From a virus (taxonomy: Duplodnaviria; Caudoviricetes), in IMG/VR virus record IMGVR_UViG_3300008255_000393, positions 1 to 27,643 of that record: a DNA stretch of 27,643 nucleotides. One strand, 5' to 3'. Shown piece by piece: positions 1 to 23,200 of the stretch. Position 1 is the first letter of the stretch. Each line of letters opens with the position of its first letter. Both the position numbers and the translations under genes were made by a program. The notes below the pieces were generated by a model that was not told the origin of the DNA, did not search any database, and was given only the letters and a program-made list of their open reading frames with translations.

Positions 1-70
1 AGTTGGATAGAACTTCTTGAAGTAATTCCTCTTTTACTTTTTTAGTCCTTTTTCTCTGGCATACCCTATA

Positions 71-181
71 CTACTCGTTATATGCATCGTTAATTACTTT
101 CCGGACATCTTGTCCGGTACACTCATAATTTTTCGATACATATTTTACAAAGGTTTCCACATCTGGATGCGTATACCACAT
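71..181 (-). CDS. small hypothetical protein (36 aa, MWYTHPDVETFVKYVSKNYECTGQDVRKVINDAYNE)
   Basis: Manual translation. Strong AGGAGG RBS follows the stop of the upstream gene. Below the ORF-track cutoff. The frame stays open past the TAG to the window edge. Confidence 0.55.
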   Translation of the reverse strand: MWYTHPDVETFVKYVSKNYECTGQDVRKVINDAYNE

Positions 182-193
182 TTTTCGTCCTCC

Positions 194-484
194 TTATGAA
201 ATATAGTAGTGGACACGGGTACGGTCAGTATTCTTAAACCGTTCCTCATACTCATCATTGGGATCATTAATTCCAGGGATCTTATATTCTGAATGGGCTT
301 TTTGCAGATCATTCAAAGAAAGGTATCCAAACCCGTTATAGTTCCCGGTTTCATGCAGGATATTTTCTATGAACAGCATAATCCCTTGCCTATAGCCGAT
401 ACTATCATCCGTAGAATTCAGGATCATATTGTTGGCCATTTCTACCAGTTTCTTTACTTCTGTCGTTTTTCTTGACTTTGCCAT
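194..484 (-). CDS. hypothetical early phage protein (96 aa)
   Basis: ORF with GGAGGT RBS inside a repeated leader cassette, downstream of a sigma70-like promoter. Confidence 0.8.
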   Translation of the reverse strand: MAKSRKTTEVKKLVEMANNMILNSTDDSIGYRQGIMLFIENILHETGNYNGFGYLSLNDLQKAHSEYKIPGINDPNDEYEERFKNTDRTRVHYYIS

Positions 485-522
485 TTTTCTACCTCCTACA
501 GTAGTTTTTGGGTTTTTACTTC
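481..522 (-). repeat. leader/RBS cassette type A, copy 1
   Basis: Minus strand gaagtaaaaacccaaaaactactgtaggaggtagaaaaatgg, essentially identical to 1605-1645. Confidence 0.9.
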
Positions 523-551
523 ATGGAACATCTTATTAGATAACATAAAAT

Positions 552-580
552 AAAATAACAATTAATATTTATTATGTCAA
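552..580 (-). promoter_or_regulatory. sigma70-type promoter flanked by a 14-bp inverted repeat
   Basis: Minus strand TTGACA (580-575), 17 nt, TATTTT (557-552) with TG extension. Inverted-repeat arms taacataaaataaa 541-554 and tttattttatgtta 581-594. Confidence 0.6.
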
Positions 581-600
581 TTTATTTTATGTTATTCAAT

Positions 601-638
601 AAGGAAGGGGGTCCATAATAAGCAACCCCCTTTTCTTT
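601..638 (-). terminator. putative intrinsic terminator hairpin
   Basis: aagggggt...accccctt stem immediately after the stop of 644..841 and just before the 552-580 promoter. Confidence 0.5.
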
Positions 639-643
639 GAAAT

Positions 644-841
644 CTAATACAGATGATTATATCCGTATTCTCGATTAATTCCTTTTACCCTTTCAAGAAT
701 ATCTCCCGCATCTCCTTCCATCAATTCTACCCCGCCTAATACAAGACAATAGAATTGATTGGAGATAGTCCAGACTTCCATTAGAATATCTCCTCCACAC
801 TCATTAAAATGATCTACTTGTTCTTTCAATTCATCTTCCAT
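644..841 (-). CDS. hypothetical protein (65 aa)
   Basis: ORF with AGGAG RBS, tightly packed with its neighbours. Confidence 0.75.
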   Translation of the reverse strand: MEDELKEQVDHFNECGGDILMEVWTISNQFYCLVLGGVELMEGDAGDILERVKGINREYGYNHLY

Positions 842-850
842 TTTATTCTC

Positions 851-1096
851 CTAATATTCATTTTCCAGATGTCTACAATATCCCTCGGCAAAAAGCTCGT
901 AAACACTTTTCTGTTCTTCCAAACTCCCATTTATTTCCGGAAGCGGGATAAAGTAGTAAAGATCACCACACCTTATTTGATGTAATGCAGGTTCTTTCTC
1001 CAGCAATACTTCCGGTCCCCTATCGTAGGTCCCATAAAAGTATCCAAAGATGAAAAACAAAACAATGCCCAAAATAGCAACCCCCTTTTTTACCAT
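851..1096 (-). CDS. hypothetical membrane-anchored protein
   Basis: N-terminal hydrophobic segment VAILGIVLFFIFGYFYG. AGGAG at 1104-1108 favours the ATG at 1096 over 1114. Confidence 0.7.
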   Translation of the reverse strand: MVKKGVAILGIVLFFIFGYFYGTYDRGPEVLLEKEPALHQIRCGDLYYFIPLPEINGSLEEQKSVYELFAEGYCRHLENEY

Positions 1097-1106
1097 TTTC
1101 ATTCTC

Positions 1107-1286
1107 CTATTCATTCATGCTTTTCAATTTTTCGACGGTTGCAAAGTACTCGTTAACCTCTTTTATCATCTGGTGACCCCAATCTGATAAATCATGTCCA
1201 TACCAATTTAGGCAATCGGCAATATGTATCATCGAATTGTGGTCCCTTTGTTCCTCTACTTTCCAAGTATCCATTTTCATTCCCAT
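1107..1286 (-). CDS. hypothetical protein (~59 aa; start uncertain)
   Basis: The track ORF 1107..1415 overlaps the upstream gene by 128 nt. An in-frame ATG at 1286 lies just after the upstream stop at 1288. Confidence 0.6.
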   Translation of the reverse strand: MGMKMDTWKVEEQRDHNSMIHIADCLNWYGHDLSDWGHQMIKEVNEYFATVEKLKSMNE

Positions 1287-1287
1287 T

Positions 1288-1608
1288 TTACATGTAACCC
1301 GACATTGACCAGCCACAGATAACACAATCGAATCCAAAGCTTCCAGATTCGACATTTCCATCAGACTCTCCATGGTGCCCATGCTCTTCACATCGGCATT
1401 CCAATTGTTTACCAATTTCGATTCTATCCATCCAACTATCTTCCCTATCCATCCAATGCTTATACATTTTATCAGCCAGTCTTTTTGCTATAAAATGACC
1501 TGACATGGATGCCAATTGTTCTGGATTCATTGTCTCAATTATGGAAAATATCTGCCACAATTGGGAATAGTCCATAGCCTTTTCAAATGGTGTTAATTTT
1601 CTTTCCAT
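1288..1608 (-). CDS. hypothetical protein with C-terminal Cys motifs (possible Zn ribbon)
   Basis: GGAGGT RBS in the repeated leader cassette; CRC...CVIC. Confidence 0.75.
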   Translation of the reverse strand: MERKLTPFEKAMDYSQLWQIFSIIETMNPEQLASMSGHFIAKRLADKMYKHWMDREDSWMDRIEIGKQLECRCEEHGHHGESDGNVESGSFGFDCVICGWSMSGYM

Positions 1609-1645
1609 TTTCTACCTCCTACAGTAGTTTTTGGGTTTTTACTTC
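1605..1645 (-). repeat. leader/RBS cassette type A, copy 2
   Basis: Identical to 481-522 apart from one A in the spacer before the ATG. A diverged third copy lies at 2595-2630. Confidence 0.9.
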
Positions 1646-1659
1646 TTGACATAAATACA

Positions 1660-1710
1660 ATTGAGCAAACTAGGAGACATGGACTTTCCATGTCCCCCGA
1701 TTCAATCAAT
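1660..1710 (-). promoter_or_regulatory. conserved intergenic RNA hairpin, copy 1
   Basis: 24-position stem with G-U pairs on the minus strand and two internal mismatches; abuts the stop codon at 1710-1712. Confidence 0.75.
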
Positions 1711-2597
1711 TATACTGCCAGCAGTTCAAAGGCTTCCGCAGCCTTCCTGCTTTTTATGGATTCCGTACTCGGGTTTTTCACCGAATCCGTTATCCACTGG
1801 GTTACACTATTGTAGGCAATCCAAAGATCCGCTTTTTTATCTTTGAATCTATCTTCCAATGTTCCTTTAAATCCCCTCAGAGTTGCTTTTACAAGCTCCT
1901 CTTCCTGCTTTTCGGAGATCTTAAGGACTTTCAAAGTCTCCTCAAATTGTTCGGGAGTAATCTGGACTTTGTTCCAGCCCTCCCACAATCCTATGGTTTC
2001 AGTGAAGGACCCCATATTACTCATTGTAGTTTCAAGGCATTCCTGAAGATTCAAAGTACCCTTCAGATGTAATTTTTTCACACTCTCCTGGTTAGGGAAT
2101 CGCTTGTCAGGCACAGTCAATCCGTTGGTACATACAAGCCTTTCCACTTTGAATTCTGATAAGAAGCGCAGGGAAAGATCCACGCTATTAATGTTTCGCA
2201 GAACAGGGACTAGAATATCCCCGTTTACGGTCAATTCCGCATCCTTCCATTTTACGTCATTAAACATCCTGGAATTCCCAGCCCCGGAGAATTTCAAGTT
2301 TATTATGGGCTTTCCAAAAGAGGACATATAGGATTGAATTCCTTCCAGGAGGGCGCCAACTGCCTCATAATGTTGAACTAAGGAATACTGCTCGGAGACT
2401 TCCTTAATTGCTTCCCAATTCTCCCCGCCGTCCATTGAAGACATTGTATAAAAGCGTCCCGGGACTTCCTGGTATTTATTCGGTGCAATCTGTACCCTAG
2501 TCGGACACAATCCGAATTCTGGCATATCGTTCAAGCCGTTAATCTTAATACCCAGATCATTCGCCATTTCCATTACCTGCTTTTTGTTTTCTAACAT
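1710..2597 (-). CDS. DUF932/DUF945-like phage/plasmid protein (295 aa)
   Basis: Motifs VSEQYSLVQH, ERLVCTNGL and LWIAYNSVTQW are typical of DUF932. GGGAGGT RBS precedes the ATG at 2597; the track start at 2660 lies inside the hairpin. Confidence 0.75.
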   Translation of the reverse strand: MLENKKQVMEMANDLGIKINGLNDMPEFGLCPTRVQIAPNKYQEVPGRFYTMSSMDGGENWEAIKEVSEQYSLVQHYEAVGALLEGIQSYMSSFGKPIINLKFSGAGNSRMFNDVKWKDAELTVNGDILVPVLRNINSVDLSLRFLSEFKVERLVCTNGLTVPDKRFPNQESVKKLHLKGTLNLQECLETTMSNMGSFTETIGLWEGWNKVQITPEQFEETLKVLKISEKQEEELVKATLRGFKGTLEDRFKDKKADLWIAYNSVTQWITDSVKNPSTESIKSRKAAEAFELLAV

Positions 2598-2636
2598 TAT
2601 CCTACCTCCCAGTAGAAAAGGGTTTTTCTGCTCGTT

Positions 2637-2692
2637 ATTGAACAGATTAGGGAATACCAATTTACAATCTGATATTCCCCGATCCAGTCAAT
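2637..2692 (-). promoter_or_regulatory. conserved intergenic RNA hairpin, copy 2
   Basis: Same pairing register and mismatch positions as copy 1, with compensatory changes and a larger loop. Confidence 0.7.
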
Positions 2693-2748
2693 TACTTTTC
2701 CCGAGATGGATCATTCCGTGCATCTTCCAACAATTCAACTCTTTTCAT
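2692..2748 (-). CDS. putative 18-aa peptide MKRVELLEDARNDPSREK
   Basis: ATGA overlap with the upstream stop, GGAGG RBS, and a stop codon abutting hairpin copy 2 as in the other genes. Confidence 0.45.
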   Translation of the reverse strand: MKRVELLEDARNDPSREK

Positions 2749-2930
2749 AATCCCCTCCGATTATACTTTGCCAACCTTTTATTTATTCTCGGGTTATAGT
2801 GTACATCCCCCACAGTACAGGAAATTATTTCAAAGCTCCTGTACCAATTCCATTTTTTAATCATGGAACAGGTTTGATTTGAAATAACCCAAAACCAAAC
2901 TGCCTCATTATATTTTTCTATATTCCCCAT
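2745..2930 (-). CDS. hypothetical protein (61 aa)
   Basis: GGGGAG RBS; packed between small ORFs. Confidence 0.65.
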   Translation of the reverse strand: MGNIEKYNEAVWFWVISNQTCSMIKKWNWYRSFEIISCTVGDVHYNPRINKRLAKYNRRGL

Positions 2931-2940
2931 TTTCTCCCCG

Positions 2941-3033
2941 TTATTTTAAAAGACCGACATTAGCCATAAACCCCAAAAATCCCCACACCATTGGGCCAAA
3001 AAACAATATTGCCATGAATAATTTACCAATCAT
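2941..3033 (-). CDS. putative 30-aa hydrophobic membrane peptide MIGKLFMAILFFGPMVWGFLGFMANVGLLK
   Basis: Manual translation; preceded by the type B leader cassette with AAAGGAG. Confidence 0.6.
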   Translation of the reverse strand: MIGKLFMAILFFGPMVWGFLGFMANVGLLK

Positions 3034-3070
3034 AATCCTCTCCTTTGAATTGATTTTTTGCCGTAAATAC

Positions 3071-3128
3071 AATTAACAGACTAGGGCGAATATATCCCAT
3101 AAATATTATTCGCCCCGGTCTGGCAATT
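3071..3128 (-). promoter_or_regulatory. conserved intergenic RNA hairpin, copy 3
   Basis: Same register and mismatches; several G-U positions of copies 1 and 2 are Watson-Crick here. Confidence 0.7.
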
Positions 3129-3130
3129 TT

Positions 3131-3370
3131 TTAATACTCCCACGCCTCATACCGAATGCAATCTATATCGTGAATTATATTTACAATTAATTCCTGCCCG
3201 TCTTCCGTGACATAACACGGACCGGCATGTCTAGGCGCTCCGCAATGAGTACAGGCAGACTTTATAATCCTACCATAGGCGATTCCAGACAAGGCTCGTC
3301 TGGAATAAGCCTCATTAATCATTGACACCAGCTCAGGACGCTCGCCAAATAATTTTTCCTTTCTTGCCAT
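3131..3370 (-). CDS. hypothetical protein with CxxC-x4-H-x3-C motif (79 aa)
   Basis: CTHCGAPRHAGPC. RBS spacing favours the ATG at 3370. Confidence 0.7.
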   Translation of the reverse strand: MARKEKLFGERPELVSMINEAYSRRALSGIAYGRIIKSACTHCGAPRHAGPCYVTEDGQELIVNIIHDIDCIRYEAWEY

Positions 3371-3378
3371 GATAATCA

Positions 3379-3400
3379 TCTCCTTTGAATTGATTTTTTG
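3379..3400 (-). repeat. leader/RBS cassette type B (caaaaaatcaattcaaaggaga); other copies at 3039-3060 and partial 3984-4000
   Basis: Exact repeat of tctcctttgaattgatt in three intergenic positions, each just before an ATG. Confidence 0.9.
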
Positions 3401-3418
3401 ATTTTTGACTACTTAAAC

Positions 3419-3477
3419 AATTAATAAGCAAATTAGGAGGCATGGACTTCCCATGCCCCCCGATTCAATTATTAATT
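3419..3477 (-). promoter_or_regulatory. conserved intergenic RNA hairpin, copy 4
   Basis: Closest to copy 1 in sequence; overlaps the stop at 3472-3474. Confidence 0.75.
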
Positions 3478-3978
3478 ATTGTTAGGATCGGCTTCCGATC
3501 CTATAACAAAGAACAATTTTTCCTTTGTTACTCCGAAAACCTCTGGTCTTTTCTTTACCAGGTCGTAATAAGTATTGCCCAGCAATTCTTTGATATCCGC
3601 CATTTTCATGGCGGTATCCGATAAAATCATTTTCACTTTCCAGTTATTCGAACCCACTATAAATCCGAATTCATCTCTTTCCTTTTTTCCTTTCTGATTT
3701 TTCTGATTTTTCCTTTCCTCTTCCGCTTTCATTTTCAAATCTTCGGAGGTTAATGTCTGGCAAATATCTTTTAGGATTCCAGAACAATTTTTGCAGGATA
3801 CATCGTTTTTATTCCAGCAATTAAAATGGTCGCACCCACCCTTTTCATTCAATTTATTTATCATTTTCTCCCTGGCGTTCAACGCTTGGTTTTTCGACCC
3901 TTCATCTTCGCATGAATTCCAAGATTGATAAGAGGAAAAAATCTTTTTCATTATTTCATTTTCTCTTTTCGTTAACAT
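3472..3978 (-). CDS. hypothetical Lys-rich, Cys-containing protein (168 aa); first gene of the leftward operon
   Basis: AAAGGAG RBS (type B cassette) before the ATG at 3978; CDHFNC...CKNC...C. Confidence 0.75.
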   Translation of the reverse strand: MLTKRENEIMKKIFSSYQSWNSCEDEGSKNQALNAREKMINKLNEKGGCDHFNCWNKNDVSCKNCSGILKDICQTLTSEDLKMKAEEERKNQKNQKGKKERDEFGFIVGSNNWKVKMILSDTAMKMADIKELLGNTYYDLVKKRPEVFGVTKEKLFFVIGSEADPNNN

Positions 3979-5581
3979 AATAATCTCCTTTGAATTGATT
4001 GATAAACAACAAATAAACAATGATTTAAACAACATTACTTTTTTTTGTGCTAACTATAGCAAAGAAAGAAAAATAGCGAATAACAAGCAATACAGAGTTA
4101 TTTTCAGCTATAAAAATAATCTTTTCTTCGCTACGATTAAAACAAAAAACAAAGAACAAAAAACAAAGACAATAACGAAAAAATCCCTAGTTAAAATCCT
4201 AGTTTATGTGATTTAAAAAATCACAATAATTCACAAACGAATTTAAAGGATTCGATTTTTTCTTGTCTTGATATAAATCTACTGTTCAATTCTTTCCTAC
4301 GTTTACCGAACCTCATGCCCGGCGAATATCAGCCATTGATAAGTAACATTAAGACTTTAATCCCGCTTCCTCATAAAAAGCTTATTGGCAGCAAAAAGAA
4401 TTCTTTTCTTGTCTTTCTTTTATTGTCTTTCTTTTATCTGTTCACGCTATTGGAATTGTTTTCTTTTTTATCAATAGTATTCGAAAAAAATCTACTTTCG
4501 ATTTATATTTATGGGACACCCTCCTTTATATACAGGCATAAATTCTCCCATGGAATCATAGTGGCAGAAAATTTATAAGACTACTAAAAAGAAAAAATAT
4601 TCTTTCTTTCTTTGTACTTATAAATTTAGTTATCAAAGATCAGGCTTTTAAAGTCTTACTAGAGCGAATCTAGAATTGACTGTTCAGTGATTTTTTCCTC
4701 CTCTATAAAGTTAATCTGAAAAGCTAAAAACTAAAAAGCTTTGTTTTGTTGCTGCGGTTGCTAAAAAGCATATGTAACTACTTATATATATAGTAGCGTG
4801 GTTTATGTAAAGCTTTTTTTAATCTTTTTTATTCTTTATTACTTTATTTTATTTAAATCATAGATAACTATATGATATCACGTGATAAAATAATTTAAAT
4901 TATTTATTAATTGTTTTTAATCTTTTAACTAAATAGTAAACTATATACTAACAATATATTGAAGTATCCAGACAACAAAAAATAAATCTTATTCTACAAT
5001 AAGACAATGAAATATCAATATGAATAAAAACAAATAGTTAAGCGTCGTATAATAATAATACAATTAACAAGGTGTTGAAGTATTATATAGCGAATAGGAC
5101 AAGAAAATATAATAAATTCTCCTGTTCCAATAGGAATTATCAAGAAAAATAAAAGGAAAGGAAAAAATATTTATTTCAGAACAAAAAAATAATAAAAAGG
5201 GCAAAAAATAAATAAAAAGGTAAAAGAGAATAGGAATTGCATATTGCAATAACCATACTATGCAATCCTATTGATAATAAGATTAAAAAAGATTAATCCA
5301 TGAAACATCGTGTGAAACTTAGCCCATAACCTATTGATAATTAAAAGAAAAAACAGGGATTCAACGGACAGAAGTTTTGCATATGATTATACTCCTATCG
5401 CAAAAAATCAAACCAGCGCGCTCCTGGACCTTTTTAAAGCATAGTGTGAATTTATACATACTAAAGAAAAAATATTATTCAAAAAATATATAGGTAACCT
5501 AAATAATATTTATAAGGGTTATTTTTCTGAAAATACCTATATTGATAACTGTTATTGTATAGTATTCAATATTGATAAATA

Positions 5582-5787
5582 TTTTTTCTCATGGGATAGG
5601 GAGAATTGTTATTAGTTATGGGTAATTATTAATTGATATTAATTCTTGGTAGTGGGCAATCCTTAAATAATAATTGCTATTGGTAATTGATAATTCTTTT
5701 TCTCATGGGATAGGGAAAATTATTATTGGTTATGGGTAATTATTATTGGTTATGGGTAATTATTATTTTCATTGGGTAATTATTATT
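5582..5787. repeat. direct and tandem repeat cluster in the AT-rich intergenic region
   Basis: ~49-nt duplication (5583-5631 vs 5697-5745) and ~3.5 tandem copies of the 20-mer aattattattggttatgggt (5718-5787). Confidence 0.85.
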
Positions 5788-6025
5788 CCTTTTTGATTTT
5801 CCAGATTCCAAGATTGAGAATTGGTATCAATAAACTTTTTCTGGTCCCCTTTTCCCAGAACAGAGGGGTGCTCGTATTCCCCAGTATTCATTTTTATGGT
5901 CCAATGTATTAATATATCATCTCCTCCGTATTCATTTTTGGAATTATTCTTAATATGTATTTCTAAATTTTTTTAGAAAATATTTTTAGACATTACCAAC
6001 GTAGTACGTTTATAAATTTTTTATC

Positions 6026-6053
6026 TTGACAATGGAAATAACTATGTTATAAG
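6026..6053 (+). promoter_or_regulatory. sigma70-type promoter for the rightward operon
   Basis: TTGACA (6026-6031), 16 nt, TG-n-TATAAG (6048-6053). Confidence 0.55.
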
Positions 6054-6112
6054 TACAGAAATACCAAAATACTTTTTTAGAATTAGAAACAAGAAATACT
6101 TTTTAGACTATC

Positions 6113-6406
6113 ATGACGACAAGTAAAAATAATTCAGCCCTTAGATTCAGTGTTAGAATTTCTGGTACTGTAACATCTTTATCATTACGAAGAAATATTG
6201 TTGCTCTCTGGTTATCTCTTTCTTTTGATAAAATAGATAAAATAGATTTGCAGGGAAAGGTTAGTAATTTTATTTATGCCAATTTATCGGATTGGAAGAA
6301 TAATACTGGGAAGGGATTTTCAGATTTTATTTCTGAGAAAATGATAGAGGATATTCTTGAGGGAGATGATTTTAATAAATATAGAAAGATTCTTACAAGA
6401 ATCTGA
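6113..6406 (+). CDS. putative ribbon-helix-helix DNA-binding protein (97 aa)
   Basis: RFSVRISGTVTSLSL resembles the RHH_4 N-terminal pattern RSxxIxGxxTSxSL. No clear RBS. Confidence 0.5.
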   Translation: MTTSKNNSALRFSVRISGTVTSLSLRRNIVALWLSLSFDKIDKIDLQGKVSNFIYANLSDWKNNTGKGFSDFISEKMIEDILEGDDFNKYRKILTRI

Positions 6407-6477
6407 TTCTGTATTTCAAATAACTGAAATTGACAGTATATTGTGTTCTTTTTATTCAAATATAATTTTTTAATGCT

Positions 6478-7107
6478 ATGACTCGCAAGCTGAAGAAAAA
6501 ATTTAAACCTACACATACACGACGAAAATCAGAAGTGGATATTGATTCTCCTCCTAAAATAATCAAAAGATTTATAAAGCAGAAGTGTGCCTTTATTTAT
6601 GCTTGTGGCACTCAATGTACGAAAAATGCTGTAGGAAAAAGTACTCTTTGTAAAAAACATGGAGGGGATCCTATTATAAAAGAGAATCTTATTAAGCCGG
6701 AAGAAATGTCTTTGGTGGGAATACTGGAGAAATATGATGCTGAAAGGCATCCTACTCTTTTTATAGATCTTTCAAGGCAGGGATTGTCTGAGGTAGAAAT
6801 TGCAGCAGAATTTGAAGTAGGAGTTGGAACACTTAGAGGATGGGCAGAAAAATTTGAAATGTTTTCCGTTGCTTTTGAAATAGGAAAGGCATTACATGAA
6901 TCTTGGTGGCTTCAACAAGGAAAATCAGGATTGAATAATAGAGGTTTTAATACTTCTCTGTTTAAATTTTTGACTTCTAATAAACTTGGATATTCTGATA
7001 AAATGGAAACAAAGAATATGAATATGAGTGTTCATGGAGTTCTTGTAATTCCTGATAAAGTGACTGAGGAAGAATGGGAAAAGGAGATTATCGATGTTGA
7101 TTCCTAA
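6478..7107 (+). CDS. terS: terminase small subunit
   Basis: C..C..CKKHGG motif, HTH segment (GLSEVEIAAEFEVGVGTLRGW), and position upstream of terL. Confidence 0.8.
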   Translation: MTRKLKKKFKPTHTRRKSEVDIDSPPKIIKRFIKQKCAFIYACGTQCTKNAVGKSTLCKKHGGDPIIKENLIKPEEMSLVGILEKYDAERHPTLFIDLSRQGLSEVEIAAEFEVGVGTLRGWAEKFEMFSVAFEIGKALHESWWLQQGKSGLNNRGFNTSLFKFLTSNKLGYSDKMETKNMNMSVHGVLVIPDKVTEEEWEKEIIDVDS

Positions 7108-7627
7108 TACTCTTTTCTTTTTTATTAGAAATGAAAGAAATGTTTCTCGTTTTCCTTTGATCAATGTTTATTCTGTCAAATCAAAAAGATATTGGAATAA
7201 TCTTACTCCTGAACAAAGAGTTGAGATTTCTAAGAAGTGTTCTATAGGAACGAAAAGATATTTTGCTAATCGTACTCCTGAACAAAGAGTTGCTTATTCT
7301 GCAATGCGTTCCAGAGTACAGAAAGAAACTATTAAAGCTAATCCACATTTACGTAAAATCCGAGCAAAATCTTTCAGAGAAGTTACCCAAAAGTACTGGG
7401 ATACTGTTGACGAAAAGAAAAAAACTGAACATATTAAAAAAATGAGTGCAGGTATGAAAAATGCTTGGGACTCTGCTGATGAAAATTTTGGACCCAAAAT
7501 TGCCCATGAAAGAAATAGAAAGATTTTTTTAGGTAATAAAATTATTAAAAAAGATTTACCAAGAATCAATGATTATTGCGGAGTTTTAACTTCTTCTCAA
7601 ATGGCTGAATTAAATGGCACGACCTAA
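7094..7627 (+). CDS. basic protein with internal 23-aa repeat; possible homing-endonuclease-derived (NUMOD-like) DNA-binding protein
   Basis: AAGGAG RBS at 7081-7086. KRYWNNLTPEQRV / KRYFANRTPEQRV repeat. Overlaps both terS and terL. Confidence 0.6.
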   Translation: MLIPNTLFFFIRNERNVSRFPLINVYSVKSKRYWNNLTPEQRVEISKKCSIGTKRYFANRTPEQRVAYSAMRSRVQKETIKANPHLRKIRAKSFREVTQKYWDTVDEKKKTEHIKKMSAGMKNAWDSADENFGPKIAHERNRKIFLGNKIIKKDLPRINDYCGVLTSSQMAELNGTT

Positions 7628-9956
7628 AATTATATGGGAGCCATTTGAAGGGGCCCAGAAAAGATTCTTAACTTGTCCTGCATGGGAATGTTTGCTTCAC
7701 GGGAACCGTGGAGGAGGCAAAACTGACGTTCTTATTATGGATTTTCTGCAAGGAGTTGGTGTAGGATACGGACAAGATTACAGAGGACTTTTACTTCGTG
7801 AAGCTACAACAGAGCTTGGTGATGTTATTGCCAAGTGTAAAAAATGGATTCCTCGTATATTTCCTACTGCAACATATAATGGTTCAAGAAAAATATGGAC
7901 TTTTAAAGATGGAGAAAGTCTCTGGTTGAACTATGCACGAACTGAAGATGATTATGAGCAATATCATGGTCATGAATATCCTTGGATTGGATGGGAAGAA
8001 CTTACAAATCATGTACTTCCAAATGTCTATTTGAAGCTTATGTCATGTAATCGATCTTCAAATAAACTAATTCCTAAAAAATATAGAGCTACTTGCAATC
8101 CAAGTGGTCCCGGACATCAATGGGTGAAAGCAAGATTTATTGATTCTGTGCGTCCAGGAAAAATTCATCGAGAAGTAATGGAAATTGAGTATCCTGATAC
8201 TCAAGGCAACACTATTAAAGCGGAATTCACTATTACACGCACACATGTACAAAGTTATGCATCTGAAAATAAAGCTCTTATGGATGCAGATCCCTTGTAT
8301 ATGGCTAAAATATATTCTTTGACTCAAGATGATGAAATGCTTAGAAAAGCATGGATTGATGGTTCATGGGATTTATTAATTGGCGGATATTTTACTGATG
8401 TGTGGGATAAGAAAATTCATGTACTTGAACCATTCTCTATTCCAAAAACTTGGAAATTATTAAGAAGTTTTGACTGGGGTTCTTCAAAGCCTTGGGCAGT
8501 CACATATGGCTTTGAATCAAATGGAGAACAACCAGATATTTGGGGACTTCCGTATATTCCAAAAGGATCTGTTATTATTCCTGGAGAAGTGTATGGTTGG
8601 AATGGTAAAGTAAATGAAGGTGATCGTGCTACTTCTTCTGAGATTGCAGAAAGAGTATTACAAAAAGATGATCTTTTATTCACAGAATTCGGTGTAAAAG
8701 CTTTTCCTGGGCCTGCTGATACGTCAATTTATGATGTACGTGATGGAACATCTATTGGATCAAATCTCGCTTCACATGGTTGCAGATGGACAAGAGCTTA
8801 TAAAGGTCCTGGATCAAGAATTTCTGGATGGTCTTTGATTAGGCAGATGTTAGGAGCTGCAAAGCGTCAAGATAAAGAAATGCCACATTTATATTTCTTT
8901 GATAGAGCAGAACATCATATACGCACATTACCCATAATGCAAAGAGATAAAAAGAATCCGGAGGATATTGATTGCTTTGTTGCGGGAACTTTAGTAAGAA
9001 CAGCTAATGATGACATTCCTATTGAGAATATACAAAACGGAGATTTTGTACAAACACCAATTGGATTACGTGAAGTTATAAAATCTGGTATATCTGGAAA
9101 AAGTAAATTGTGCGAAGTCTCTTTAGAAAATGGGATAATTTTAAAAGGTACTCATAATCATAAAGTATATGTAGAAAATAAGGGATTAGTTCCATTATGT
9201 AAATTGAAAATCGGAGATGTTCTATGTCAAAACTTATCACCTATTTTAGAGGAATCAAATTTACAAGTATCGATGGAGGATATTTTGAATGCCATCCCAA
9301 TAACAGTAAATTTTTTAATGGAACAACATTATTGCACAGAGCAAAATGGTAATTTTATATTGGAAGAATTCCAAAAGAACATGAATTGCATCATAAAAAC
9401 AGAATCAAATTTGATTACCGTCGTAAAAATCTTGAACTACTTCATGGCTCAGATCACGCAAGACTTCACATGCAAGAAAGACTTGAAAAAAGTGGGGATT
9501 TACACGAAAAACTTAAAAGCTGGAGAAAGTCTAAAGAAGGTAAAAAACAGCTTCGATTTAATATTGAAAAGTGCCGTGAAAATACTCCCAAAAGAGAATG
9601 TACGTGCGATTATTGTAATAAATCTTTTATTACAAAACATCCTACAAAAAAATTCTGTTCAATTAAATGCAGAGATTCAATTTCAGGAAAAATTAAAAAA
9701 GAATGTTCAATATGTGGAGAATGGTTTTGGACTAAGTCCCACAAAACAAGAGAAACACAAACTTGCGGTTATGCATGTGGATGGGAATTGCGGAGAAGCA
9801 ATAGTATATAATCTCACTACTGAACAGTCAGGAATGTATTATGCCAATAGTTGTCTAGTTTCTAATACCGATTTGGAGGATCATTTAATGGACTCATTGA
9901 GGTACCTTTTAACAAAAAAAATGACTCTCATGAAGAGAAAAAAGGTAGGTATTTGA
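7614..9956 (+). CDS. terL: terminase large subunit, intein-containing (780-aa precursor, ~482 aa spliced)
   Basis: Walker A GNRGGGKT, Walker B WIGWEE, motif ATCNP, nuclease motifs SFDWG and EDHLMDSLRY. Confidence 0.95.
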   Translation: MARPKIIWEPFEGAQKRFLTCPAWECLLHGNRGGGKTDVLIMDFLQGVGVGYGQDYRGLLLREATTELGDVIAKCKKWIPRIFPTATYNGSRKIWTFKDGESLWLNYARTEDDYEQYHGHEYPWIGWEELTNHVLPNVYLKLMSCNRSSNKLIPKKYRATCNPSGPGHQWVKARFIDSVRPGKIHREVMEIEYPDTQGNTIKAEFTITRTHVQSYASENKALMDADPLYMAKIYSLTQDDEMLRKAWIDGSWDLLIGGYFTDVWDKKIHVLEPFSIPKTWKLLRSFDWGSSKPWAVTYGFESNGEQPDIWGLPYIPKGSVIIPGEVYGWNGKVNEGDRATSSEIAERVLQKDDLLFTEFGVKAFPGPADTSIYDVRDGTSIGSNLASHGCRWTRAYKGPGSRISGWSLIRQMLGAAKRQDKEMPHLYFFDRAEHHIRTLPIMQRDKKNPEDIDCFVAGTLVRTANDDIPIENIQNGDFVQTPIGLREVIKSGISGKSKLCEVSLENGIILKGTHNHKVYVENKGLVPLCKLKIGDVLCQNLSPILEESNLQVSMEDILNAIPITVNFLMEQHYCTEQNGNFILEEFQKNMNCIIKTESNLITVVKILNYFMAQITQDFTCKKDLKKVGIYTKNLKAGESLKKVKNSFDLILKSAVKILPKENVRAIIVINLLLQNILQKNSVQLNAEIQFQEKLKKNVQYVENGFGLSPTKQEKHKLAVMHVDGNCGEAIVYNLTTEQSGMYYANSCLVSNTDLEDHLMDSLRYLLTKKMTLMKRKKVGI
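8973..9866 (+). mobile_element. intein (298 aa) in the TerL nuclease domain
   Basis: Block A CFVAGTLV, block B GTHNHKVYV, block F VYNLTT, block G YYANSCLVSN followed by +1 Thr. Removal restores KNPEDID-TDLEDHLMDSLRY. Confidence 0.93.
9224..9811 (+). pseudogene. HNH homing endonuclease with C-terminal Zn fingers, encoded in the -1 frame inside the intein; premature TAA at 9350-9352
   Basis: GGAG 9213-9216, ATG 9224. Reads MSKLITYFRG...LLHRAKW*FYIGRIPKEHELHHKNRIKFDYRRKNLELLHGSDHARLH...CDYC..CSIKC..CSIC..CGYAC. Confidence 0.85.
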
Positions 9957-11496: not shown

Positions 11497-12258
11497 ATGG
11501 AATTTGAATTTATTGAAGACGCAGAACTAAGAGCCAAAGTAGTTGACGCCTATAACAATAGTATTATGGAAATTAAAGATTCCCATAAACTTGCAATGGA
11601 TGAAGCTGTAAATGGTCTTCGCAGTAAAAATGTTGAACTTCTTGACGAAAAGAAACAAACTCAGCAAAAGTTGAAGAAATTTGAGGAGTATGATTTTGAT
11701 GCTGCAAATGAAGCATTGGATTTCTTGAAGAATAATAAAAATGCACAGCTCATTAAAGATGGTAAAGTAGATGAGTTGATTGAAAAAGAAACTTCCACTC
11801 TTCGTTCAGATCATGAGACTGCATTAGGAGAACTTAATGCCAGATTGTCTGAATTGCAAAGACATGGCGAATTGTATGAAAGTCTTTATAAGACTAAAAT
11901 GGTTGAAGATTCTCTTCGTGAAGCTGCCATAGCTGCAAAAATACGTCCTGAAGCAATCACTGATGTATTGCTCCATGGAAGAAATATATTTGCTCTTGCA
12001 GAAGACGGATCTGTTGAAGCCCGTGACACAGAAGGAAAATTGAGAAAGACTGCTGATGATAAAGTTCTCACAACTTCCAACTGGATTGAAGGATTGAAGA
12101 GAACTTCTCCTCATTATTGGCCTGACTCTCTTGGCGCAGGTGCAAGAGGTGGCGGTCCTGGAGATGAAGGTGACTTGACAATTGCTTTGAATCGTGCTGC
12201 GGCAAGCGGGAATATGACAGAATATCGAAGGCTTAGAAAAAAAGCAGGTAAACAATAA
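11497..12258 (+). CDS. capsid scaffolding protein
   Basis: Coiled-coil, charged, with a Gly-rich linker and basic C-terminus (EYRRLRKK); lies between portal and capsid; GAGGAG RBS. Confidence 0.8.
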   Translation: MEFEFIEDAELRAKVVDAYNNSIMEIKDSHKLAMDEAVNGLRSKNVELLDEKKQTQQKLKKFEEYDFDAANEALDFLKNNKNAQLIKDGKVDELIEKETSTLRSDHETALGELNARLSELQRHGELYESLYKTKMVEDSLREAAIAAKIRPEAITDVLLHGRNIFALAEDGSVEARDTEGKLRKTADDKVLTTSNWIEGLKRTSPHYWPDSLGAGARGGGPGDEGDLTIALNRAAASGNMTEYRRLRKKAGKQ

Positions 12259-16956: not shown

Positions 16957-17240
16957 TATCCAACGGACACTCTTGGTCAAGCATAAAAGAATACAGTTTA
17001 TCAGAAATTGGGATTTTCTATAGAGCTATTATCTTAGATGAGGAAGATAGAAAGTCTGAAAATCTCACTGATTTATGGATTGGTGCAAATCTGAAGTATG
17101 AAGGATTGCAGGAAGTTCTTAAAAGTATAAGTAGAAAGGAAAAGCTTAAAAAGAAAAAAGCTGGTCATGATATTGCTGAAGTAAATAAAGATTGGAAAAG
17201 ATTAGCAGGATTTATTGGTAGTAGGAGACGAAATGGCTGA
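16869..17240 (+). CDS. frameshifted tail assembly chaperone extension (gpGT-like; fusion 16504..17240, ~245 aa)
   Basis: G GGA AAC at 16869-16875. The -1 frame is open from 16857 to TGA 17238-17240 with no ATG: LHKLDGE...QKLVSNGHSWSSIKEYSLSEIGIF... Confidence 0.85.
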   Translation, partial: GKLHKLDGEIHEDDSGEQDKGIIRAVQKLVSNGHSWSSIKEYSLSEIGIFYRAIILDEEDRKSENLTDLWIGANLKYEGLQEVLKSISRKEKLKKKKAGHDIAEVNKDWKRLAGFIGSRRRNG

Positions 17241-20200
17241 CAGTACAAAAAGAACTATTGAAATAGCGGTAAATGTAACTGGAGTTGAAAGTGCTGCTAA
17301 ATTAACCTCATTAGCTGAAAAGTTCACCACGTTGGCTGACGCTGCCAAGAATGTAACTACCTTACTTAATTCGTTTAAATCTGCTATTGATCAAATAAAA
17401 TTCCCAAAAGAATTTTCCAATGTAGTTGATTCATTAAAAGAATTATCAAAAGTAAAGAAATTACCAGATCTTGATAATATTGCAAAAGGCTTTGAAAAAC
17501 TGGGAAAGATTGGGAGTAATCTACCTAATCTTTCTCCTTTTATCACTGAGTTAAAGAAATTTGCTGGTGTCAAAGTTCCTAATATTACTCAAGTTGCTAA
17601 TGTAATTAAGAAACTAAATGAATCCACTTTAAATATAGGAGAAGCCACAACCCGTCTTAACAAGCTTTATTATAGCATTAAAAACTTTGACGGAATGAAA
17701 TTTCCGAATATGCACAGTTTCATTGGTGGATTTAAAGAATTTGAATCCCTAAAGATTGATGCTATTGCGACAAAGATAGGACAACTTGGAAGTGCTATAA
17801 GAAAACTTAGTGAATCAGGAAGTTTAAAACATTTTGCCACGTTTGCATCTGATTTACGAAATCTGTCTTCCAGTTTAGACAGATCTGTTCAATCAATGGG
17901 CAGAACTGAAACTGCTGTAAGATCATTGGGCAATTCATTTGATTCCGCAGGAAAACAAAGTAAGTCTTTTGGTGACCGTTTAAGAAATTATATGCAATAT
18001 CGTATTATAGCTGACACTATAATGGGATTACAGCAGGCATTTAGAAGCGGGATGTCTGCAATTTTCGAATACGATCAGGCACTAAAAGATTTACAAGCTA
18101 TTACAGGAGCAACCGGACTTGAAGTAGCCCAAATGGGCTTAAAAATAAAGGAAGTAGCATCAGGTACAAAATTCTCAGCTTCTGAAGTTGCTGAAGGTAT
18201 GAGAACTATTGGACAGGCTGGTTTTAGTGCTTCCGAAGCAATAGGCACAATGCAATCTGTCTCCGATCTTGCAACTGGTACTCTTTCTGACATGAGTACA
18301 TCTGTTGACTTGGTCACCACAGCAATGCGTGTATTTAATATAGATGCATCCCAATCAAGTCGTGTAAGTGATGTCTTTGCTAATGCTGTCAATAAGTCGA
18401 AATTGACAATCGACAAACTTAGGACCGCAATGAACTATGTTGGTCCTATTGCAAAAAATGCAGGTGTCACATTTGAAGAGATGTCCGCTGCAATGATGAC
18501 CCTTGCTAACTCCGGTATTCAAGCATCTAAAATTGGTACAGGTCTTCGAAGAGTGTTTGCTGAACTTCTTAGCCCTTCTGAAAAATTACAAGATGCTGCA
18601 CGTAATGCAGGAATAGCTTTACAAGAACTTGATCCTAGAACAGCTTCCCTTTCTGATGTATTCAAAAATCTTAAAATCGTTGTAAGTGATGCGGAAGTAG
18701 CTTTTAATCTATTTGGAAAACGTGGAACTTCTGCCGTTCTTGCACTTACCGACAGCAATAGCCAATTTGATAGTCTTCTTAATTCTGTAGGTAAATCAGG
18801 AACTGCCGCAGCAATGGCAGCAGTTCAGATAGAAGGTCTTGGAGTATCATTCAAGAACTTAAAAGATAAACTCGGATTACTTGCAATCGCAATTGGCGAG
18901 CTTGGAATAACCGATGTTCTTCGTGTTCTTATTGATGTATCAAAGAGTGTTGTCGATGCTATAACAGCAATTGCAGATACAGCACTTGCTAGATTTATAG
19001 GCAAAGGTGTTATATTTGTCGGTTCTATTTGGGCAATACATAAAGCTTTTGTCGCAATTCAAGCATTAAACATTGGCATGATTATAGGAGCTGCTGTCGG
19101 TAAAATGATTGCATTAACCGCTGCTACTATAACCGCTCAAGGTGCCGCCGCTGGATTACTTCTTGCTTTTAATCCGTTAATTGCTGTTTTTGCCGCTGCT
19201 ACCGCCGGATTAATTTATATGTTTTCAACTCTTGATAATGCAAAAGAGGCAGCAGAAGATGCAGCTATACTTGCCGATAAGTACGCAGCTCTTGGAAAGA
19301 CTTTCCAAGATCATAAAGTAGAAACTTCAAACATGGCAGAAGGTTCTAAAGAACTGAAAGAAGAAAATTTAAAATTAAGAGCATCACTTCTTGAAACCGC
19401 TTCAGGTATGTCCGAAATTTCAGATGAAGCTGCCGAAGCTGCTGCCAGTATAAATCCATTAACAGGCGAAATATATAAAAATGGAGAAGCACTTGAAAAA
19501 TATAATAATGAGCTATCACGATTAAGTTTTCAAAGTCTTTCGGATTCTGCCGGAGCTGCTGGAGATAATGTAGAAAAACAAACAAGCGGTATTAATAGAG
19601 TTGTAAACAGATGGAAGGATGCTTTTAATCAAGTGGGAACTCTTGGAGAAGGCGTTGGTAATTCAATAGTATCTGCATGGGAGGGTGATTTTAGTGCAAT
19701 TCCTGGAATAGTTGGAAAGGCCCTTTCCAAAACTTCTGAGTACAGTGAAGAATTTAAAAAAGCTTTTGATTTTTCAAAAGAGTTAAATAAAGGCAATAAG
19801 TCATTTAAGGAATTTTCAGATTATGTGAATTCACTTAATATGAGTAATCTTACAAATCAACAAAAAGATTTAGCGGAATCGTACAAATTGCTCAATGAAA
19901 GAACCGATAAATTTCTTTCTGGTCTTATCGAGTCAGGTAAAGTTGATCTGAATGATACAATCGAAAATATAAAAGGTATAGAAGAGGCTACAGAATTAAC
20001 AGGGATTGAGTTAGAAGCATTTATAGAAAAAATTAAAATATTGAAAGGTCTTGATTCCGGGGGATTTTCCAATGTAATTGAAAAGTGGGCTAATGATTCA
20101 GAACTTCTAAATGGAAGGGTATCAGATATGATACCTAAATTCATTGAACTTGGAGGAGAGATTGATGCGTCACAAGCAACACAGATAATCAACGGTGAGC

Positions 20201-23200
20201 GCATAATGCGTGATCTTGTTGATCAATACGGACAAGCCAAAGAAAATCTTGCTGCTGATCTCGCTGCCGGCAAAGATAAAGAAAAAGCATATAAAGAATT
20301 TTATGCTGTAGAAAAATCTCTTCTTAAACAAGCTGCTGACTTAAATGCTGAAACTGCAAAAAATACTGCGGCCCAGGTAATTATATCTCTACAAAAGGCA
20401 AAAGATGAACTTACAAAATCCCAGAATGAAATAAATGTCAAATACAAGGATAATATTGAACTTCTTGTAAAGTATTTGATGGAAGCTGAAACGAAATACG
20501 AAACTGCGAAAAGTAAAATTCTTGGTAATGTTGTAGACCCAAAAGAATTACTTGCACAATCAAAGACAATAGTAGGAGAAATTACAGAAACTTATGCAGG
20601 AATGTATAAAGATCTGGAACTTGAAGTCTTGAATAAAACCAAGACTGAAAAAGAAGCTGCTGCTATTCGTAGAAGTCTTGAACAAAAAGAAGCAAAAGAA
20701 ATAATCGATATATGGAATAACGCGAATAATCTTATTATAGCTCAAAATGATCCTGATTCGCCTGCTGTACGTTCTATAAATAATGCCCGTAGAGATGCAG
20801 CAATCGAACAAGGAAAAATTGAAGTAGAAATCTCTAAAGAAATTGCTGAGGAACAACTTAAAGCTAAACAGAATCTGTTTGATCGAGAAAAAGAGCAGAG
20901 AGAGACAAATTTTGCAGAATATATAACGATTATTGAACAACAAGAGCAAAAGGGTATTCTGACACACGAAGAAGCAGAAACAGCTAAAATGAACGCTTCT
21001 CTTGATCGATATGCGGAAGAATATCGAATGGCGAAAGAGTTTCATGATAAAATAGATGAGGGACAGAATCCTGAAGCCCATCAAGCAAGTTTAGATGCTT
21101 TGCTCAATGCTGAAGAAGCCTTTTATGAAGAGAAAGGAAAGTTTATTGAAACATACAATAAACAGGTAGAAAAACTTCATAATGATTTAGAAAATAAACA
21201 AGATGATCTTTTAAAACAGGAAAAGGCACATTCAGAGAAAATAAAAGACATTAATGATGATCTTGCCGATGATCTAATAGAAATTGCTGAAGATCTCGCC
21301 GAGAAAAAAACAGAAGCTGAATATCAATACACCATTGATGTTGAGGCGCTTGAGTATGATCTTGCCGACAAGATAAAAGATATCAAAAAGGATCTTGCTG
21401 ACGATCTAAAAGATATTGACGAAGAAATACTGGAAAATAAAAAGAAACTTAATGCTGAACTTCTTGATATTGAGAGTTCCACTAATGACATTGAAAAGGA
21501 CATACGTCAACGTGGAATGACTGATAGAGAGAAAAGTACCGATAATGAAAAATCGATTTACAGAGAACTTAAAACTATAAGAGAAGGAGTTGCTGAAGCT
21601 GAAAGAGCTGGAGATGCTGAAGCGATTAAACATTATCAAGATAGATTAAAAGAATTACAAAAAGAAAGCACTGGTATAGATGATAAGGGAAAAGCATTAA
21701 GTGCGCTTCATTCTGTTGAAAAGGATATGATAGCAACCACTAAATCTGCTGATTACGTTAAAACAATTGAACTTGAAAATGAAGCATTAAAGAAACAGGC
21801 AGAAGCAAAACAAAAAATACTGGATGCTGAACAAGATACTTCTCGCGCAAAAGCAATTCTTGATGGAAAATATGATCACGAATTAAGCCTCATTGATCAA
21901 GTCACAGATAAAAAAATAGCTTCCACAAAAAAGGCTTCTGCTGATGCGATTGAGGCTGAAAATTATCGCCATAATTTAGTTATGGACAATCTTGATACAG
22001 AGATTGCAAAGCTGAATGAAAAATTACAATATTCTTCTAATGCTGCTGCTGATGCTTCAAGCAGTGTATTAACAGAAGGTAGTGGTTCAGGCGCTGTCAG
22101 CGGCACATCTGGTAGCTCTGGCGGTGGTAAGTCCAATCCTATAGCTGAACAAGCAATACGGGCGAAACAGGCGATTGTCGAAATGGACACGCAAATGAAT
22201 GAAACCGCCACAAATATGATTCAGAAATCAAAAGAGATAGCAGATACGGGCTTTAGATCTATTGAAGAAAATGGTAAAATAATTTTTACGAATCTTAGCG
22301 ATGCGCAGAGAAACGCATTTCAAGTAATGGACGAGGCGATGACAGGTGCCTCTGAAAGCTCTATGACTGCAATCTCTGAAAGTACGAAACAAGGTGCCGC
22401 TCAAATTGTGGAAGCTGTTTCACAAATGAAGCAATCAGCTAGTGATACTGAGATTCCTATAAATGTTCAACAAAATCCAGAAATTCCTGATGTTCAATCA
22501 AAATTTCCTGAAGATGTAAAGGTTCCATTAAAGTTAGATGTTGATACAGTAAATAACGATGTAGGTGTGGTGACAAGTTCAATTATGGGACTTGCTAATG
22601 TTGCGGTCGCTCCTGAAATAAATTTAAACACAGAGGATGCTAATTCAAAGATAAAGTCAATTATCACAGACTTAGGCGCTTTAGCTGTTAGGGATGCAAA
22701 CTCAATAACCTTAGATACATCTGATGTTGATGTAGCTGCGCGTAAGATTTCGGATTTGTTTGATGGAATTGATCCAGTAGAGCCTAAACAGAAGCTACAG
22801 GATATGATTACGACTATGCACGGAATGGGACCTGCTAGTAGTCAAGTATTTAATTCCATGACAAAGGAAATAGTTGATTTTGCCAATACTATAGATGGTG
22901 TTGATGTCAGTATTGATATGAATAAAGTACTTGCCCCAGATACTTGGGCTAGGGGCTTTATGACTATTACTGATGGAGCAGGTAATCTTGTAGATAACTT
23001 GAACAAAAATGTACAGTCTAATCCAATAGATCTGTTTCCTAGAGATCAAACCTTAGATATAATAAGAAGAATTGATAATATTGCTGGAGCTGCTGAGTTA
23101 GTTCAGAAACAGTTAGATAAGGAATCTGAATTAAAATTAGATGTTACTGGAGCAGAAAGTAACATAGATAGGCTTGCAGATGAAGTAATTCCAAACGAAG

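Follow-up and report, generated by a model that had tools for sequence, protein, structure and literature searches.

Intercistronic hairpins with a shared helix defect in the probable early operon of a siphovirus and its relatives: candidate RNase III-type processing sites

The window analysed here, a 27,643-nt stretch of viral DNA taken at its full length, is a fragment of a siphovirus genome. Its plus strand encodes a large terminase carrying an intein (7614–9956; Hint hits), portal, capsid and tail proteins, and a tape measure protein of 3207 aa (17215–26838), which implies a very long tail. A basic ORF of 177 aa with no assigned family lies upstream of the large terminase (7094–7627) and has relatives in several loci. 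Small genes with strong ribosome-binding sites cluster on the minus strand (1–3978), separated from the plus-strand genes by a 2-kb AT-rich non-coding stretch; from the gene layout, this leftward cluster is probably the early operon. Within the non-coding stretch, before the terminase, are tandem AT-rich repeats with 20-nt spacing (5578–5793), which possibly mark a packaging or genome-end region; relatives have other short repeats there. A metagenome scan recovered a longer copy of the same phage (L102) and nothing else, and cultured phages gave distant capsid matches only (24–38% identity). L102 also contains, outside the window and between early genes, a perfect 21-bp inverted repeat with a 33-nt loop (11647–11721).

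The operon opens with a gene of 168 aa (3472–3978, minus strand, as are all operon features given here) and continues with a 79-aa gene (3131–3370), a 30-codon hydrophobic ORF read from the sequence and below the cut-off of the ORF list (2941–3033), a 61-aa gene (2745–2930), a DUF932 (PF06067) gene of 295 aa (1710–2597) and a 106-aa gene (1288–1608). DUF932 is the sole protein with an assigned family in the cluster, and a search of the literature on it found no function. Repeated leaders recur in the operon: one with a strong ribosome-binding site at 3375–3404 (repeat family D2) has copies at 3035–3064, just before the 30-codon ORF, and at 3980–4009, and a 41-nt leader with a ribosome-binding site at 1608–1648 (family D10) has a 98% identical copy at 485–525. 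Long hairpins occupy four of the first five gene junctions, counting the 30-codon ORF: c4 at 3416–3480, c3 at 3071–3128, c2 at 2637–2692 and c1 at 1655–1715. The stop codon of the 168-aa gene falls within the 5′ arm of c4, and that of the DUF932 gene inside c1. A first, sequence-only reading had every hairpin begin at or within a few nucleotides of a stop codon; this holds for three copies, whereas about 51 nt separate c2 from the stop at 2745. Farther along, at 532–603, lies a fifth long hairpin, AT-rich and of a different type from the four (z −7.1). The operon's best promoter-like site (−35 at 580, with an extended −10) lies within it, and the repeated leader D10 follows; a stretch resembling it precedes DUF932 in the relative L106, and on this sequence evidence the region is probably a conserved internal promoter.

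All four hairpins share one register with two defects, as first read: a C·A mismatch on the inner side and a pyrimidine-pyrimidine mismatch six positions farther out. From the loop outwards, c4 consists of an inner stem of 11–12 bp, a G-U pair, C3462·A3434, 5 bp, a U·C mismatch and an outer stem of 12 bp, and c1 of an inner stem of 12 bp, C1699·A1671, U·C and an outer stem of 11 bp. The defects are C3117·A3082 and C·U in c3, which has an outer stem of 5 bp, and C2681·A2648 and C·U in c2, whose 3′ arm is able to pair with the downstream leader instead. Helices are 22–29 bp long and, with C·A as position 0, span about −11 to +10..+12 in every copy. Common to the four are G-U at +1, G-C at +2/+3 and A-U at +8 on the inner side, and A-U at −2, the pyrimidine mismatch at −6, U-A at −9 and A-U at −11 on the outer side. 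The minus-strand folds of c1–c4 have free energies of −30.9, −24.0, −26.7 and −30.5 kcal/mol (z −7.8, −5.2, −5.6 and −6.4), and none of 200 shuffles was as stable as any of them. Folded within 130 nt of context, c2 has an outer-helix pair probability of 0.03, a competing downstream hairpin winning, against 0.94–1.0 for the other three. The consensus proposed earlier matches exactly four times in the window, always on the minus strand; a sequence-free descriptor (inner stem of at least 7 bp, mismatch, 5 bp, mismatch, outer stem of at least 4 bp) run over both strands of the 27.6 kb likewise returns the four hairpins and nothing else. One caveat is that the copies are not independent, because copies 1 and 4 are 86% identical.

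The first reading also took G-U pairs to be confined to the coding strand. The asymmetry is strong, with about 18 G-U pairs on the minus strand, but it is not absolute: in the pair table one C·A per copy would become a wobble on the plus strand, where c1–c4 fold at −17.7, −17.3, −25.0 and −22.5 kcal/mol, and c3 folds almost equally well on both strands. This matters for the idea that the hairpins act as DNA, as single-strand or cruciform recombination sites or attC-like cassette ends that shuffle small genes. Their position after stop codons, the repeated leaders and a mosaic gene order among relatives would suit such elements, yet the G-U pairs favour the transcribed strand, and sequences of ribozymes, which act as RNA, share the slots in relatives. 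Integron attC sites have RYYYAAC/GTTRRRY ends and extrahelical bases and are recognised by an integron integrase. The defects here are opposed mismatches rather than extrahelical bases, and no integrase was found among the 25 window proteins scanned, from a genome that is incomplete; the hairpins were therefore not classed as attC sites, and we regard a DNA-level role as scarcely credible.

Like intrinsic (Rho-independent) terminators, the hairpins have a G/C-rich stem just after a stop codon, and a simple scan rates c4 as terminator-like. Unlike terminators, and as first read, they have no good U tract (4 of 8 nt are U, with interruptions, in the copies of the window; the count is 1–5 in 8 nt across 16 family members), and a conserved outer helix doubles their length. 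We did not classify them as intrinsic terminators. A weaker version of the idea is that they are uncut stability elements or weak attenuators. On this view the G/C inner stem makes RNA polymerase pause or in part terminate, or shields RNA already cut elsewhere from 3′ exonucleases, and the early operon is graded with no dedicated cut. The position right after stop codons speaks for this; the U count, which is 1 in 8 nt in 9 of the 16 members, speaks against it, as does an outer helix with fixed defects that a terminator would not need.

To place the hairpins in a wider context, relatives were fetched by portal, small terminase and DUF932 searches (30, 31 and 20 loci). Their leftward operons, when folded, also have long hairpins after stop codons, with the stop codon in the 5′ arm in most, as in c1 and c4. 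A looser descriptor run over 41 sources returned 25 rows, 17 of them outside the window's phage, and the four window copies, 6 of these 17 rows chosen by eye and one extra folded hairpin made up a training alignment of 11 sequences from 5 phages. The covariation that the sequence-only reading saw among the window copies extends to these homologues: 18 of 21 pairs change on both sides, 91.7% of cells are paired, none of 500 shuffles reaches the score, and sliding the alignment lowers the paired fraction to 41–50%. These figures are inflated by relatedness and by the hand selection of sequences. The A-U two positions outside C·A is present in 11 of 11 training sequences, and the second invariant, A-U at +8, in only 2 of 5 tabulated members from outside the training set; because the training sequences were picked by eye from 5 phages, the invariant pairs are partly selected. 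The conserved, covarying helix shared by the window phage and its relatives has about 22–24 positions. The usual defect in relatives is C·A with A·G, versus C·A with G-U in the window.

In a covariance-model search of phage DNA, 6 of the 10 related phages for which early-region sequence was available proved to carry the family (the window phage, L100, L136, L126, L127 and L101/L106); the four without it are L088/L105, L077/L144, L074 and L098. Matches from outside the training set score 45 bits in L106, 29 in L126, 51 in L329, 32 in L219 and 33 in L261, and a diverged fifth copy lies farther down the operon of the window's phage (L102, 12520–12575; 32.9 bits). L219, L261 and L329 were added through pattern scans of a sister subfamily (at least 121 loci and 55 loci) and are no test of the conserved pairs, because the fetching pattern fixes those pairs. 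All model matches are intergenic, on the sense strand and mostly at a stop codon, L219 also overlapping an alternative ORF call; across the whole contigs G001–G003 (101, 103 and 72 kb) they are confined to this operon. The fragments G004, G005, G008 and G011–G014 contain no match, and L223 (32 bits) and L250 (23 bits) were dropped, since they fold outside the family register. Scanning IMG/VR with a pattern specific to the window produced 70 stretches; folding in register was limited to those of the same phage (3 loci). Rfam has no match to the hairpins in the window and no family for them in the relatives' loci, and we found no open-access paper (PMC, bioRxiv) on this hairpin or on swapping between hairpin and ribozyme. 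By these sequence comparisons the hairpins are a real, uncatalogued cis-RNA family, which bears out the earlier suggestion of an undescribed motif. Other small RNA features were seen along the way. In L126, several copies of a palindromic hairpin of 9–11 bp (2370–6660, minus strand) are related to the ribosome-binding leader that the window's phage, L101 and L126 have, and could be an operator or leader hairpin. Between operon genes of the L126 phage, L153 has an int-alpA RNA match (656–725, minus strand; 39.9 bits against a gathering score of 35.8).

Not every gap among the relatives carries the family. In L077/L144 and L074 such gaps have U-tailed, terminator-like hairpins, which favours attenuation, and some orthologous junctions have short hairpins only, for example after the DUF932 genes of L106 and L126. 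Given these U-tailed and short hairpins, what the junctions have in common could be protection of a 3′ end, and not cutting. Other gaps contain ribozyme sequences. Rfam places compact twister-P1 sequences without P3 at L105 5157–5211, 6542–6595 and 7946–7999 (42.5, 36.9 and 32.9 bits) and at L126 5034–5085 (52.7 bits). At 33–53 bits the four are below the Rfam cut-off of 67.2 (E 3e-3 to 6e-10); they have P1, P2, P4 and two pseudoknots with the conserved loop nucleotides, 59 of 60 cells are paired, and both pseudoknots covary with two-sided changes, so that by fold, as far as sequence can tell, they qualify as twister-P1. They start 37–42 nt after the stop codon in L105 and 134 nt after it in L126, and end 23–32 nt before the next start. 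G004/L105, the phage with these three twisters in its gaps, has no hairpin match. Additionally, L106 has a type III hammerhead-like motif at 5297–5350, with a U·U at the base of stem II beside the core. The descriptor found no other site in 591 kb scanned and none in 682 kb of shuffled sequence, and the motif matches RF00008 weakly (17 bits, E 0.029); the screen outlined in parts of PMC3088659 would at first reject a site with U·U next to the core. The twister model R2, run over 55 sources and 5 contigs, found no further twisters, and the window has no ribozyme by Rfam, R2 or the hammerhead descriptor.

These ribozyme sequences occupy the same junctions as the hairpins. The DUF932 gene is followed by a hairpin of the family in the window and L100, and its orthologue in L105 (28.7% identical) by a G/C hairpin and a twister. 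A gene of 96–98 aa is followed by a twister in L126, and its orthologue in L106 (41% identity) by a hairpin of the family. Lastly, a 78-aa gene precedes a twister in L105, and its 42% identical orthologue in L106 precedes the hammerhead-like motif. A G/C hairpin directly precedes all four twisters and the hammerhead-like motif. Ribozymes of these classes cut near their 5′ end, which would leave upstream RNA ending in the preceding G/C hairpin. The window hairpins would give the same kind of end if cut in their 3′ arm just past the inner stem. Because the same genes precede twister or hammerhead sequences in relatives, the hairpins likely mark sites cut by a host enzyme. A plain G/C hairpin before every ribozyme would also suit the uncut stability elements or attenuators described above, but ribozymes in these slots would cut the RNA and not stop transcription, and we consider that explanation unlikely.

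We propose, with a probability of roughly 0.65, that the hairpins are RNase III-type processing and stability sites. The analysis lends this reading, already offered from the sequence, the support of covariation, a helix of about two turns with a central defect, no U tract, and ribozyme sequences in the orthologous junctions of relatives. RNase III, as described in passages of PMC3867540 and PMC1540722, takes two-turn substrates of ~22 bp, of which 11 bp or more must lie on the directing side, needs A-U or U-A at proximal-box position 2, and helix defects favour single-strand cuts that leave stabilising 3′ hairpins; a section of PMC11780869 gives similar rules for the B. subtilis enzyme. All four copies offer a two-turn duplex with at least 11 bp on the cut-directing side, the outer helix of c2 having its competing fold. 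In the E. coli data from part of PMC6212723, the mismatch that most often adjoins the cut is C·A (5 of 85 at B and likewise at B′). Scored with the pair matrix from the same part (thresholds −25.5 and −33.8), which may not represent the host's rules, the four copies reach about −24 to −33 in their better registers, values in the range of those thresholds; at least two registers fit and none is singled out. Taking A-U or U-A at proximal-box position 2 and no G-C beside the scissile bond as the rule, the outer half conforms in the 3′-arm register, and both halves conform when the site is centred on the pyrimidine mismatch; proximal-box position 2 is the invariant A-U at −2 in either. We favour the 3′-arm register because the two turns are then centred and the ribozyme product is mirrored, and infer that a cut just before the A of C·A would be preferred. 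By E. coli rules, which may not be those of the host, G-C pairs of the inner stem at +2/+3, and in many cases at +5, count as antideterminants. The contig of one relative is binned in a Ca. Tenebribacter MAG with rnc; MAG binning was not accepted as evidence for this host.

Two further explanations bear on which protein, if any, acts on the helix. The first is a site at which a phage or host protein binds and does not cut, reading the C·A/A·G or C·A/G-U defect to control antitermination, stability or translation. In L136, L126 and L106, nearly identical sequence surrounds the defect over about 16 nt of each arm, which exceeds the reported needs of E. coli RNase III, and the inner G-C pairs could make a bind-but-not-cut site of a kind found in passages of PMC3867540. 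Yet there is no candidate protein among the first genes, which have no family and weak likeness between phages, and protein-free ribozymes replace the hairpin at orthologous junctions; the antitermination or stability factor suggested earlier explains these swaps poorly, and a non-cutting protein site seems quite unlikely to us. The second is that another nuclease cuts here, either Mini-III or one encoded by the phage, or that the hairpin is a minimal RNA of a new class that cleaves itself. The hairpin does occupy ribozyme slots, conserves non-canonical pairs and fits any one E. coli RNase III register poorly, but the window hairpins lack the catalytic core and multi-helix fold of Rfam ribozymes and were not classed with them, and their two-turn length fits RNase III. 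A single helix that lacks branches, has one or two small defects and closes with a loop of free length is not known to contain a catalytic core like those of the small ribozymes described so far. We rate this explanation as highly unlikely.

If the hairpins are RNase III-type sites, the operon would be read as one long polycistronic transcript, and a host double-strand RNA endonuclease, probably RNase III, would bind the two helical turns. The defect would favour nicking of the 3′ arm only, at one point directly beyond the inner stem (before A3434, A3082, A2648 and A1671), as occurs in T7. Upstream pieces would then end in a protective G/C-rich inner hairpin, and the cut pieces would decay and be translated independently. 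In c1, c4 and most relatives the stop codon falls within the 5′ arm. There the outer helix would open briefly as a ribosome terminates, and this could, speculatively, tune cutting.

There are precedents for such processing. The T7 early pre-mRNA has RNase III sites at which single-strand cuts lead to mRNA maturation and protection, as related in portions of PMC8708148 and PMC3867540. Like the T7 signals (R1.1 and others), the window hairpins are long and intercistronic, with an internal defect, in a phage RNA presumed to be polycistronic. They differ in being a separate sequence family from a siphovirus, known here from sequence alone, in having symmetric 1×1/2×2 defects with a second defect 5–7 positions out, and in being interchangeable with ribozymes in relatives. 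Clusters of hammerheads and twisters in phages and prophages have been proposed, in passages of PMC3088659 and PMC6765202, to cut long transcripts into gene-length mRNAs, and in vitro cleavage of tandem hammerheads is reported in part of the former. The present phages resemble those with clustered ribozymes in that relatives carry ribozyme sequences at orthologous junctions, whereas the window hairpins have no ribozyme core and would need a protein.

The sequence comparisons raise the possibility, to which we give a little less than an even chance, that in this phage clade RNase III hairpins, twisters and hammerheads stand in for one another at early junctions, as plug-in parts for cutting mRNA. 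If true, the phages would switch between host-dependent and host-independent mRNA processing. We see a very slim chance that the defect-bearing hairpin is a self-cleaving RNA of a new, minimal kind or is targeted by a nuclease of the phage. The work adds an uncatalogued, compact family of probable processing sites, which may be usable as insulators or stability parts. The purpose of bacterial and phage twister and hammerhead ribozymes is called unresolved in a passage of PMC6765202, and the presence of a ribozyme or a protein-dependent hairpin at orthologous junctions amounts to a swap experiment made by nature. Should ribozyme and hairpin both produce the same pieces capped by a hairpin, processing of the polycistron would be the function.
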